Shown: piece by piece, positions 5,948 through 63,419 of the stretch
Layout of the letters: every line of letters begins with the position of its first letter
Numbering within the stretch: position 1 is the first letter of the stretch
Assembly (NCBI GenBank): GCA_964016885.1
Contig: OZ024747.1
Span: 69,130,001 to 69,194,000 of the forward strand
DNA length: 64,000 bases
Origin: Eledone cirrhosa
Taxonomy: Eukaryota
Direction of reading: 5' to 3'
Program-made: the position numbers and the translations under genes
The notes under the pieces: generated by a model
Database searches by the model: none
Seen by the model: the letters and a program-made list of their open reading frames with translations, nothing else
What the model was told of the DNA's origin: nothing

Positions 5948-5980
<33 letters not shown>

Positions 5981-5983
<3 letters not shown>

Positions 5984-6183
5984 CGAAGGAAATGTGGTAA
6001 GGAACCAGGTGGACCATAACGCACAAGAGTACTCAATACTTAGGGTAGTAGAGTGGATAATAGGAAAAAGTATGACCCCGACGGCAAAGCTCAAGCCGCT
6101 TCGACGGCTATTTCTGGACGAAATCTCAGTCCAGAAATAGCCGTCGAAACGGCTTGAGCTCTGCCGTCGGGGTCATACTTTTT

Positions 6184-6188
<5 letters not shown>
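5981..6188 (-). mobile_element. Palindromic half-hammerhead element, copy 1
   Basis: 60-bp inverted arms 6060-6119 / 6129-6188 (2 mismatches) plus a tail shared with the copies at 34.0 and 63.2 kb; flanked by (TA)n on both sides. Confidence 0.8.
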
Positions 6189-6220
<32 letters not shown>

Positions 6221-17914: not shown

Positions 17915-18703
17915 TCATCCCTTGAATCGCAAGAATGTTTTGCAAATTTTGAAGGTGCCAGCTATCGCAGCCATTTGTAGACTATGAATTAGGGAGCTGC
18001 GCTCTTTGTCCGCAAATCCAAGTTCAGTCATACTTTGGTCCAAGCGGGTTTGTATATAACCCGTAGCTCCAATAATGATGGGTATGAAGCTAAAGGTGTA
18101 TCTTGGATACTGGATTTGTAAACTCCTCATCAATGGTCCGTAGATGTCCTCCTTCTCCTGTATTTTTCTGACAACGTTTACATCAAGTGGGCAGCTGATC
18201 TCCACAACAGAACACGTTTTCAATGTGTGGTCCCAAACAACAATATCAGGCCGGTTGTGCTTTAATTTGGCAGTTTTTATTTTCAGGTTCCACCAGTATT
18301 CCTTAGTGCCATCTGTCTCAATATATTCTTCCTCGTTTGTTGTTAATTTTATTTTCCGAAGTGCGTTCCAGATGGTTCTAGCTATCCCATCGTGTCTCAT
18401 GGGGAGGTAGTAGCGAGATGACATTCTTTCGCAGCTGGCAACAATGTGGCTTACATCTTCGATCTTTGTTTTACATAGCCTACATTTATTGTCAGCTGAT
18501 GGCCCTCTTTTGTGCAGCAGATATTTGGTAGGGAGTTCTTGTTCCTGTATTGCATAGAGATATCCCTCAAGGTGCGATGTCATAAACTTGTCGGAACTCC
18601 ATACCAGGCTTTTTATCCCCTCTATGGTCTGTGTTTTACGTCTCAAGTATCCATGCACAACTTTTTCTGTAAATTGGTCAATTTTTTCATCTTGTTTGAA
18701 CAT
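17915..18703 (-). pseudogene. Zinc-knuckle plus restriction-like endonuclease fragment of the R4/Dong element
   Basis: 262-aa ORF: HGY, EGYLYAIQEQ, CRLC-HIVASC, RHD, HNRPDIVVWD, EISCP, K..KEDIY, PIIIGATG. Confidence 0.9.
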
Positions 18704-18906
18704 TGAATAGGATCTTCCGATTTCTCTGGGTGAGAGATTTATATCAGGCTTTATTCCATATCTCTGCTCGAGATCAGTGGCTATCCTAATGATATTTTTT
18801 TTTTCATGCTCATAAACCTGGGAATGTTGGTTGCCAACCTTTTTTCTCTGTTGAAGATGTTGCTTCAGTGTTACTATCCGGGTCTCATATGATGTTAATA
18901 TGGATT

Positions 18907-20142
18907 TTAGACCCCGGCCACCTTCCTTGCGTGAGAAGTATAGCCTATCACATCACCATTTATGTTAAAGTTCCCAGTATCACTGAGAAGTTTGCGAGTT
19001 CTAACATCCATCTCACTTAGTTCTTGCAATGACCAGTTCAGCAGGCCAAATGTTGGCGTTAGAATTGGCACAGCATAAGTATTGTGGGCAATGTATTTGT
19101 TGTACGCTGACAGTTCTGATGACCATATTTTCTTTACTCTTCTGAGGTATTCAGTTCTGGTTCTCTCCTTATTTATGGATCCATCATATCTGACATTCTC
19201 ATCCTGTCCAAGATATCTGTAGTTGTCACCTGACTGTAGAGGTTGTATTGTCAGGCCGTTCATCTCTAGATTTCTAGAGGAGGGCACAGCTCTTCCACGT
19301 TTTACTGCCAAATATGCACACTTGGACTCACCAAATTTCATTTTGATATCTGTTGAAAATTGTGTAATGAGGTCCAATTGTTTCTTGATGTCATTGATAT
19401 TTGGCCCATACAACTTCAGGTCATTAACAAAGAAAAGATGGGAGATACTTCTGGACCCACTTCTTTGTCCACCTCGTTTCCTGAGTAGGTAAGATAGTGG
19501 ATTTAGTGAGAGAACGAAGAGTAGCACTGACAAGCTATCACCCTGAAAGATGCCCTTCTGGTAATGTATCTTATCAGTCTTAACTTGCTCCTTCTCACCT
19601 CTAAGGATCAAATTCGTGTACCAGTTCTTGGTCAGACGTTCAACAGCAGCTACCAGTGGTTGTGGGACTTTGGCTAACTGTAAAGCCTTAACAATCCACC
19701 CATGAGGTACACTATCAAATGCTTTTTGATAGTCCAGCCACACCACAGTCATGTTTCTGAGATTCTTTGTTGTTTTTTCTTGAATTATTTTATTAGTTAG
19801 TAGGTGATCTATGCAACCCCACACCTCCCTCTTTCCACCAGCTTGCTCAGGTGTTATGATGTTGTTGGTAGCACAGTGATCCTGTAAGAACAGGTTAAGA
19901 CACCCAGTATATAATTTATACATGATGTTTTGGCAGGCAATTGGGCGGTAATTTTTAGAAAGGGTGGTTTGACTATTTTTGGGAATGAGGAGAGTAGTGG
20001 CAGTTGATAACCATCTGGGCAGTTCTTGTGTGCCTTTAATGGTTTCTGTAAACAGCCGTATGAGATCTTGCCGATAGAAAGTGAAATTCTTCAACCAGTA
20101 TCCTGTAATGAGGTCTGGGCCTGGTGATTTCCTATTCGACAT
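18907..20142 (-). pseudogene. Reverse transcriptase ORF fragment of the R4/Dong element
   Basis: 411-aa ORF. Catalytic motif reads FVND instead of FxDD. In-frame stop upstream at 20242-20244; frameshift near 18945 (DRLY...EGGRGL continues in another frame). Confidence 0.88.
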
Positions 20143-20396
20143 TTTCTGTAGAGCTGTTTCCAGTATTGACCCATCTATGTCATATTGTTTTGTCTGGACA
20201 TGTTGGTAGTAGTCCTGTTCCAGTTCTTTTAGCCATTTAGTTTATCTGTTGAATCCGTCATCCGTTTCCCATACAGATCTCCAGTAGCTCTCAACCTGCT
20301 CTTTTGAAGGGGTGTCATTTACAGAGATTGAGCTTTTGCCACCGAAGCTGCGATAAACTGATTTAGGATCTCTGGCAAACAATCTATTCCAACATT

Positions 20397-33738: not shown

Positions 33739-33803
33739 TATTTTATCTGATGAAAGCACACCATAATTTAACTTGGTGTCCTTGAAATATGTATAATGAA
33801 ATA
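33739..33803 (+). ncRNA. Type I hammerhead ribozyme (intact core)
   Basis: Stem I uauuuuau/augaaaua; CUGAUGA 33747-33753; stem II aag.acacca/uggugu.cuu; GAAA 33784-33787; minimal stem III AU-augu-AU; predicted cut after AUA at 33795; AATAAA follows. Confidence 0.8.
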
Positions 33804-33863
33804 AATATGGTTTTATAAATATAGTTTCCATTTGTTAATATCGTATATATATATATATGAAAA

Positions 33864-33997: not shown

Positions 33998-34010
33998 TAT
34001 ATATATATAT

Positions 34011-34220
34011 GAAAATGTTCAAGACCCCGACGGCAGAACTCAAACCGTTTCGACAGCTATTTCTGGAGTCTGGACTCTGCGTCCAGAAATAGCCGTCGAA
34101 ACGGCTTGAGCTCTGCTGTCGGGGTCTTGAACATTTTCCTATTACCCACTCTTATTAACCCTAAGTATTGAGTACTCTGGTACGTTATGGTCCACCTGGT
34201 TTCTAACCACACTTCCTTCG

Positions 34221-34222
<2 letters not shown>
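34011..34222 (+). mobile_element. Palindromic half-hammerhead element, copy 2
   Basis: Inverted arms ~34011-34067 / 34082-34138, then shared tail, flanked by (TA)n. Confidence 0.8.
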
Positions 34223-34292
<70 letters not shown>

Positions 34293-34409: not shown

Positions 34410-34480
34410 TATTTTATCTGATGAAAACACAAATGTTATTGCATGATGATATTTGTTTTTGAAATGCGCATAATAAAATA
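34410..34480 (+). ncRNA. Type I hammerhead ribozyme (intact core)
   Basis: Perfect 8-bp stem I uauuuuau/auaaaaua; CUGAUGA 34418-34424; ~15-bp stem II; GAAA 34461-34464; palindromic stem III AUgcgcAU; predicted cut after AUA at 34472. Confidence 0.85.
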
Positions 34481-62553: not shown

Positions 62554-62791
62554 ATATTCAATGATATTTAATAAATGGAAACTATATTTATAAAACCATA
62601 TTTATTCTATTATATATAGTTCAAGGAACACTTGAACCGTTAAGGTCCTTGGTTATGTCAAAATTTATAAAACACACTTCGTATTTTATCTGATGAAAGC
62701 GTACCAAAGTTTTGGTACCCTTGAAATATATATAATAGAATAAATATGGTTTTATAAATATAGTTTCCATTTATTTAATATCATTGAATAT
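62554..62791. repeat. 73-bp inverted repeat around a hammerhead
   Basis: Arms 62554-62626 / 62719-62791, 2 mismatches. Confidence 0.88.
62682..62742 (+). ncRNA. Type I hammerhead ribozyme (intact core; homolog of 33.7 kb)
   Basis: Stem I uauuuuau/auagaaua; CUGAUGA 62690-62696; stem II aag.guaccaa/uugguac.cuu; GAAA 62723-62726; AU-auau-AU; cut after AUA at 62734. Confidence 0.85.
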
Positions 62792-63022: not shown

Positions 63023-63201
63023 ATAATTGTTTCTACTTTAGGCACAAGGCCAGCAATTATCCAGTACATTACTGGTACTTTATTTTATCGACCCCGTAAG
63101 GATGAAAAGCAAAGTTAACCTCGGCGGGATTTGAACTCAGACCGCAAAGGGACGTAACTATACTGGAAAGCATGGTGTCTGACGCTCTACCGATTCTGCC
63201 A
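63023..63201 (-). mobile_element. Family A SINE, short form
   Basis: Core and tail intact. Confidence 0.88.
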
Positions 63202-63224
63202 TTTAATATATATATATTATATAT

Positions 63225-63408
63225 GAAAATGTTCAAGACCCCGACGGCAGAGCTCAAGCCGTTTCGACGCCTATTTCAGGAAATAGCCATCGAAACGGCT
63301 TGAGTTCTGCCGCTTGAACATTTCCCTATTACCCACTCTACTACCCTAAATATTGAGTACTCTGGAGCGTTATGATCCACCTGGTTCCTTACCACATTTC
63401 TTTCGTTT
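63225..63408 (+). mobile_element. Palindromic half-hammerhead element, copy 3
   Basis: Same arms and tail as 34.0 kb, with central and right-arm deletions; flanked by (TA)n. Confidence 0.78.

Positions 63409-63419
<11 letters not shown>

Follow-up and report, generated by a model that had tools for sequence, protein, structure and literature searches.

Penelope-like elements (PLEs) are the closest described relatives of the repeats analyzed here, and their transposition cycle is still open with respect to the inverted insertions, the tail at one end and the role of the hammerhead ribozyme (HHR). Transcription of Penelope begins in the upstream pLTR (PMC2377424), and a PLE reverse transcriptase (RT) has been described with two internal starts and extension of both target strands (PMC11167929). 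Head-to-head inverted pLTRs with palindromic junctions are reported for Adineta vaga Penelope (PMC3846280) and the D. virilis Penelope promoter (PMC2377424), as is an Inr-like motif or mapped start site within the pLTR; these features, with a putative start site in place of a mapped one, recur in the family described below. In the case of A. vaga, Penelope has a low copy number and its palindromes are ascribed, in the available part of the account, to self-priming on an antisense template (PMC3846280). Minimal PLE hammerheads likewise share with our family a type I motif in the pLTR, a U3-A8 core (Schistosoma Cercyon), a palindromic loop III, GAGCTC, and dual motifs on opposite strands 100–700 bp apart (PMC4209133). 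A further report only counts hammerheads, as far as its accessible text goes (PMC6962438).

The window, a 64-kb stretch from a microsatellite-rich genome of 3.0 Gb, contains three hairpin-plus-tail elements of ~200 bp each, bounded by (TA)n tracts (Table 1). The three copies reported in the initial annotation, at 6.0, 34.0 and 63.2 kb, are all present. Positions within the element are numbered from the hammerhead cleavage site, +1 being the first base 3' of GUC and -1 the C of GUC. The ~59-bp hairpin of copy 1 was predicted to fold with -124.5 kcal/mol (z = -18.2) and copy 2 gave z = -13.9; for each, none of 200 shuffles was as good. The tailed arm of copy 1 holds the end of loop II, the stem II 3' strand, the GAAA position, stem III, GUC and the stem I 3' strand, and its tail sequence is the start of the 5' UTR in full-length elements, where it runs on to the ATG of the ORF. 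The tail-less arm has GAAA at 6146-6149 and GTC at 6166-6168 (+). The right arm had initially been read as an HHR 3' half; the motif GAAA-CGGC-TTGAGCTCT-GCCG-TC-GGGGTC is indeed found in copy 1, at 6146-6174 (+), but the tailed arm of copy 1 has GAAG in place of GAAA, and 7 nt spanning the cleavage site are missing from copy 3. The enzyme strand (stem I 5' strand, core and stem II 5' strand) is missing from the window copies, as the same annotation had stated: their arms begin at -35 to -45 and the core lies at -84 to -78.

Table 1. Coordinates of the three palindromic copies and their parts in the window.
Feature	Position	Strand	Remarks
Copy 1	5981-6188		tailed arm on -
Copy 2	34007-34225		tailed arm on +
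Copy 3	63221-63409		tailed arm on +
(TA)n target tract, tailed end of copy 1	5950..5982		
Copy 1 tail	5981..6059	-	+21 to +101 from the cleavage site
Copy 1 tailed arm	6060..6124	-	about -45 to +20
Copy 1 head-to-head junction	6125..6127		copy-specific
Copy 1 tail-less inverted arm	6128..6188	+	-41 (A of initiator-like motif) to +20 (CCTAT)
(TA)n target tract, tail-less end of copy 1	6187..6217		
Copy 2 tail-less arm	34007..34067	-	
Copy 2 junction	34068..34080		contains a short insert, repeated locally
Copy 2 tailed arm and tail	34081..34225	+	GTC at 34118-34120
Copy 3 tail-less arm	63221..63281	-	
Copy 3 tailed arm and tail	63280..63409	+	7-nt deletion across the cleavage site

The parent ORF was not found by tblastn of the 64-kb window, no host exon was recognised among window ORFs of at least 90 aa, and Rfam gave only microsatellite or miRNA-hairpin noise among the 150 of 414 matches listed. 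In contigs of public sequencing runs, which may share their sample with the assembly, depth changes in a step and joints are frequent at 6126-6134; summed contig depth is not copy number, this evidence was not counted as independent support, and none of the contigs crossed the centre of copy 1. The window also holds other repeats. Copy 2 is flanked, at 33740-33805 and 34410-34480 (+), by two motifs recognised by eye as resembling minimal hammerheads of other families (canonical CTGATGA...TGAAA); the sequence 3' of the first is found again at 62718-62786, ahead of a (TA)n tract. A dispersed SINE-like repeat at 63035-63205 lies immediately upstream of copy 3, and its start is also found beside L009 and in L063. 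Two overlapping open frames of 444 and 345 aa at 17918-20241 (-) appear, by eye, to carry non-LTR retrotransposon RT-like and C-terminal zinc-knuckle/nuclease-like motifs.

The hairpin repeats are almost certainly the 3' pLTR end of a PLE. This parentage was seen directly at locus L123, where arm and tail run unbroken into a 5' UTR and then a 719-aa ORF with RT and C-terminal GIY-YIG motifs; the initial assignment of the arm to the 3' half of a PLE hammerhead is borne out. ORFs of 717–719 aa were found at L123, L279, L280, L282 and L283, the five beyond that of L123 lying in 3.5-kb tandem arrays, and the spacing of matches gives a tandem unit of 3.53–3.54 kb with a long 3' UTR. Since a single ORF carries both RT and GIY-YIG, the element is placed among the PLEs (EN+). 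The architecture of these elements was also recovered, with a pLTR formed by a partial tandem, an inverted 5'-truncated copy and a one-sided tail (L123, L128, L282/L283; 16 of 20 long loci).

The 719-aa protein contains FDIESYY at 253, YRDD at 348, VIYQ at 591 followed by YIG at 606, R at 617 and H at 621. It has RWR at 37 and, at 117, DKT, the mark of the Hydra clade (as opposed to DKG). The CxCx5C linker reads CNCPDRSIC (572); CCHH is absent, with one Cys inside the GIY-YIG core, while CNLCSEE at 670 places CxxC around the conserved E and LNK...CKH at 688 places CxH around the conserved N. Homologs numbered 2,054 among the 8,000 scored, the best full-length ones at ~40%, and the top homolog carries PF01541; Pfam and PDB searches of the 719-aa ORF itself gave no match. 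The motifs and a comparison by eye with Hydra-1_Obim and other Hydra proteins, as distinct from a tree, suggest that the protein belongs to the Hydra clade. The Naiad clade was considered for its (TA)n targets and inverted copies and was ruled out, the endonuclease being C-terminal rather than N-terminal and the motif DKT rather than DKA.

The repeats are a real and abundant by-product of this new Hydra-type family, and are of more value as a record of mechanism than as a functional RNA. An ordinary MITE, in which a DNA transposon with long inverted repeats targets (TA)n, is practically out of the question. Two of the best 30 short matches (L008 and L015) have a tail on each arm and are symmetric throughout, as a MITE would have it, but most copies are asymmetric, their inner boundary varies, and their sequence is the 3' end plus 5' UTR of an RT-encoding element; the RT/GIY-YIG parent refutes this alternative. 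Further rearrangements were seen. At L280:7170-9978, where a tandem array of full-length elements is truncated at its 5' end, an ORF segment (+1713 to +1771) occurs as at least 51 near-identical repeats of 55 bp. At L124:2179-5862 and L121:3294-4649, other PLE ORFs are nested between the inverted ends of the family or replace the body between them.

Non-palindromic long copies turned up in position-sampled DNA (L066, L085), and upstream of the arm they read stem I, TTGANAA, G and stem II. The TTGANAA-form pattern has 6,051 matches in the genome. Among 80 distinct long copies, 66 have the U3 and A8 core (UUGANAA) and 11 a C3/A8 mismatch; position 7 varies freely (G38 T23 A16 C3), GTC is retained in 74, and position 9 was fixed by the search pattern in many of these copies. 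RNAalifold, given 37 of the 80, recovered the three-way junction. A named hammerhead structure had 93.7% of cells paired, compared to 27–50% in slid controls. Three of ten stem II pairs changed on both sides between the family and its sister, one of these being imposed by the search patterns, and the changes reflect a single family/sister split. Rfam gave no hammerhead match on the parent. On sequence grounds, the parent copies are assigned to the type I hammerheads, with a compensated U3:A8 core, while some C3/A8-mismatch parents may be catalytically weak. This mismatch subfamily (L091, L106, L131, L211) has spread nonetheless. A loop I–loop II pairing was tried and rejected, being present in one subfamily and not kept in others.

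The parent bears on two further claims of the initial annotation. It has a 5-bp stem III and a loop II of ~40 nt, and the stem II 5' strand is a separate sequence; of the proposal that the hairpin centre is stem II, only the outer part stands, GTCCAG belonging to loop II. A parent with CTGANGA had also been expected. Upstream of the arm there are 18 CTGANGA matches, none of which is a parent (they are junction accidents or antisense coding sequence). Since the parent core is UUGANAA or CUGAGAA, taking the absence of CTGANGA as evidence against a ribozyme parent would have been misleading. A canonical CTGANGA search, or Rfam, misses ~6,000 ribozyme-bearing ends in this genome. At L031:1340-1400, an antisense hammerhead-like 5' half (TGAAGA, stem, GAAA) runs directly into (TA)n, and a related piece occurs in the L033 junction.

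The palindromic core has at least 13,928 exact pattern matches genome-wide; a control pattern gave 0. In 1.08 Mb of position-sampled DNA, taken as stretches at round coordinates away from the window, 17 short palindromes were found, which corresponds to ~47,000 per genome (Poisson range 27,000–76,000). A DNA search for the element returned 3,991 candidates, of which 40 were scored. In the sister family, the counts are 203 for long arms and 1,015 for palindromic cores, and the second figure takes in some main-family copies that have mutated. Hairpin centres are copy-specific, with 56 distinct ones among 63 short palindromes and a few that recur.

Copy number and centres together bear on whether a short palindromic master RNA was itself retrotransposed as a self-propagating, non-autonomous family (SINE- or retrozyme-like), possibly as dsRNA or a trans-cleaved substrate. 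Such a family would account for the very high copy number and the few recurrent centres, and a 299-bp retrozyme-like tandem of the same pLTR exists at L281. We nevertheless regard it as very improbable: nearly all centres are distinct, the recurrent ones are explicable by the joining of fixed ends, and the subfamily of window copies 2 and 3 also has long parental arms (71, versus 537 short palindromic matches genome-wide).

The L281 array (L281:1286-3523; G000:C2:356029785-356032022) consists of eight head-to-tail units of the 299-bp pLTR piece (-99 to +221) with a U3:A8 hammerhead, a shortened loop II and a deletion joint again at -41. From its sequence it looks like a retrozyme born from the Hydra-type PLE, and a link of animal retrozymes to PLE pLTRs has been described (bioRxiv 10.64898/2026.07.22.740005). 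A non-LTR retrozyme was considered for the window copies as well and rejected; these are head-to-head half-ribozymes rather than head-to-tail complete units, whereas the separate L281 locus does fit.

A tally of the 5' ends of arms spanning the cleavage site covered the window and 118 other stretches, 1.244 Mb in total; of its 62 references, 49 were trimmed to -110. Ten of 82 arms end beyond -95, 2 at -94 to -48, 55 at -47 to -33 and 15 closer; in the flanks of searched loci, the same bins hold 7, 1, 20 and 11 of 39 arms. This wall near -41 is directly observed and is not confined to palindromes or to one family. Solo arms flush with (TA)n also stop there, 825 of them on the reverse strand alone, and a diverged sister family has its wall at the same position. 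In 40 head-to-head pairs, both arms are short in 34 and both long in 4; 2 are borderline (-48, -49) and no pair is clearly mixed.

The wall is also the start of longer copies. Altogether 242 copies run from the pLTR into the 5' UTR, and 30 of these loci were fetched. In six, a short inverted arm precedes a start at the wall, and the copy continues, as read directly, to +191, +195, +202, +213, +317 and +918, within the 5' UTR or ORF; in 5 of the 6, a further same-strand segment restarts at -40 to -44, and the tandem segments as a whole restart at -35 to -44. Of the remaining loci, one starts at -83 and the others are partial tandems. Because wall-starting copies run into the 5' UTR and ORF, the 5' boundary is fixed in an RNA that contains the start of the ORF.

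The wall is the A (-41) of TTAGT/TCAGT, and TTAGT at -43 to -39 is the longest loop II run common to the family and its sister. This motif resembles a metazoan initiator. A TATA-like TATTTAAA lies ~30 nt upstream of the wall in some subfamilies and is absent from the sister family. Conservation of TTAGT may reflect tertiary contacts within the ribozyme rather than a transcription start. RTs add C opposite a cap, a point for which no passage was found in the literature searched. Where one base separates two -41 ends, the centre is C:G in 44 of the first 50 listed; with 0–3 bases allowed, 28 of 50 cases are a single C:G, 4 are C-W-G and 6 have none, C and G at the centre being indistinguishable in palindromes. 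In the parent, the base preceding -41 is T in all 21 cases. Of the 50 solo places listed, counted by hand, 34 keep -41, preceded by T in 20, G in 8, C in 5 and A in 1. The cap-G signal is only partial, because 5 of these 34 arms have C and 20 have T before -41; judging from the sequences, the Cs can be templated by the TCAGT subfamily and the Gs cannot.

The same parent could have produced the wall in another way: on a longer RNA, loop II would either have halted the RT by its structure or have been cut by an endonuclease. The wall does lie inside a conserved ribozyme, beside a possible small inner loop II hairpin in some subfamilies, and its position is kept in the sister family. However, a stalled RT would be expected at the 3' base of the stem and not within the loop, the site is read through in the 6,051 long arms, long arms pair with long arms, and stalling predicts neither the non-templated G nor the initiator-like motif. 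We consider a stop or cut unlikely, if still the foremost of the alternatives.

The 3' ends are equally restricted. A (TA)4 tract lies within 160 nt of 239 of 246 arms, 7 having none nearby; 110 arms end near +20, 106 near +101 and 23 elsewhere, so that 216 are at two main end points. Both of these directly observed ends, +20 and +101, fall at TAT; the first 130 nt contain four TAT triplets, of which these are two. Long loci were fetched in 20 cases, 15 of them chosen because both arms were listed, and in 16 of the 20 the outer arms lie on opposite strands, one tailed and one tail-less. This is the published PLE architecture, and the head-to-head layout also holds in insertions of up to ~5.5 kb, where the arms are of very unequal length. 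Target-site duplications are not assessable inside (TA)n. In some cases two templates were used: in the chimeras L032 (~700-1600) and L033 (~1000-1583) a tail-less arm of our family adjoins endonuclease sequence from another PLE family (29–43% protein identity). At its end, the L032 partner has a canonical CTGAAGA hammerhead whose loop III is AATT, together with a tail and (TA)n.

These ends and layouts argue against a fold-back, in which the first cDNA folds at the stem II hairpin, or self-primes, and is then copied into the inverted arm. Self-priming has been proposed for PLE palindromes (PMC3846280). The centres are copy-specific, and arms are more alike within a copy than between copies (4.9 versus 8.0 differences in 50 nt). 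The two arms of a copy almost always agree in subfamily haplotype (identical in 33 of 56 cases versus 17% at random), a concordance compatible both with one arm being copied from the other and with twin priming on a single RNA. But solo arms stop at the same wall, the listed centres are without the parent's loop sequence, the second arm ends 3' at a fixed point of its own, +20, the L032 and L033 chimeras need two templates, and the kilobase insertions have very unequal arms. A fold-back, which the initial annotation had invoked, is not needed, and we think it a little less probable even than a stop or cut in loop II.

Our preferred account, which we think probable as a full explanation, is that the palindromes are run-off cDNAs, primed near the mRNA 5' end at two internal sites and end-joined at (TA)n. 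Transcription would start inside loop II of the hammerhead in the upstream pLTR, so that the wall would be the capped mRNA 5' end. The protein would bind near the ORF start and nick both strands of (TA)n. Priming would follow at +20 and +101, where TAT matches the target, one site for each target strand, and the RT would run off the RNA start after about 60 and 140 nt. The two short cDNAs would then be end-joined head to head, with trimming or small inserts. The 5' copy on the mRNA would be a half-ribozyme that does not cleave itself in cis, and long copies would arise by priming in a pLTR-plus-tail further downstream, supplied by tandem read-through or by a circle. The short palindromes, which lack the enzyme strand, are probably inert by-products.

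We are evenly divided on a stronger reading, that the mRNA starts inside its own hammerhead and so disarms its 5' ribozyme, and that most retrotransposition attempts end as integrated run-off cDNAs of a strong-stop-like kind. If this is true, ~50,000 hairpins would record, in fossil form, where the PLE transcript is capped, where both primings take place and how templates are switched, and ADAR and small-RNA pathways would have in them an abundant supply of perfect dsRNA. Hairpins transcribed within introns could be strong ADAR substrates, by analogy with a palindromic Harbinger repeat that is edited by ADAR in Xenopus (PMC5625713). For internal priming at two sites, on both target strands, the family provides support at genome scale and at the level of single bases. 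It also suggests a 3-nt TAT match to the target and, in mRNA 5' run-off, a simple reason for mass short palindromes. The exact positions (-41/-45, +20, +101) and an intact ORF are available for study of the mechanism.

The literature searched, which was largely that open without subscription, with Repbase/Dfam outside its scope, contained no description for PLEs of a fixed run-off wall or of short palindromes on a mass scale. Six 13-nt probes of the family were not found in the supplement of PMC8557442, and the literature search gave no paper for Twhb, a name for an octopus repeat. The family-level PLE biology is already known, and the less ordinary part is the fixed 5' wall. In LTR retroelements, minus-strand strong-stop DNA is a short cDNA primed near the RNA 5' end that runs off at the cap, after which it jumps to another template. 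The comparison is one of analogy and not of membership, as the present family has no tRNA primer or LTR regeneration and its product would be target-primed and integrated.

The Hydra clade, including Hydra-1_Obim (PMC8557442), shares with our family the single ORF, C-terminal GIY-YIG, DKT, CxCx5C and lack of CCHH, as well as the (TA)n target, a hammerhead near the 3' end, the inverted 5'-truncated copy and the one-sided tail. It differs in several descriptive traits. The unit is 3.5 kb here and generally <3 kb in the clade, RWR is a conservative change from the clade's RWK, and the tail is ~80 nt rather than 30–40. The U3:A8 core (UUGANAA), 5-bp stem III and ~40-nt loop II contrast with the canonical CTGANGA cores in the published table (PMC8557442). 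Compared to minimal PLE hammerheads (PMC4209133), the 5-bp stem III predicts folding as a monomer, and most genomic copies here are 3' halves only. Poseidon from Anolis (PAc), studied in vitro, has two internal RT starts near the ORF start that define the tail, cleavage and extension of both target strands, and a hammerhead left uncleaved in inserted copies (PMC11167929), all as in our family. The PAc RT start is reported to be non-homologous to the target, whereas both main starts here lie on TAT, matching (TA)n. A fixed 5' run-off that gives mass short palindromes is seen here and does not figure in the available part of the PAc account (PMC11167929).
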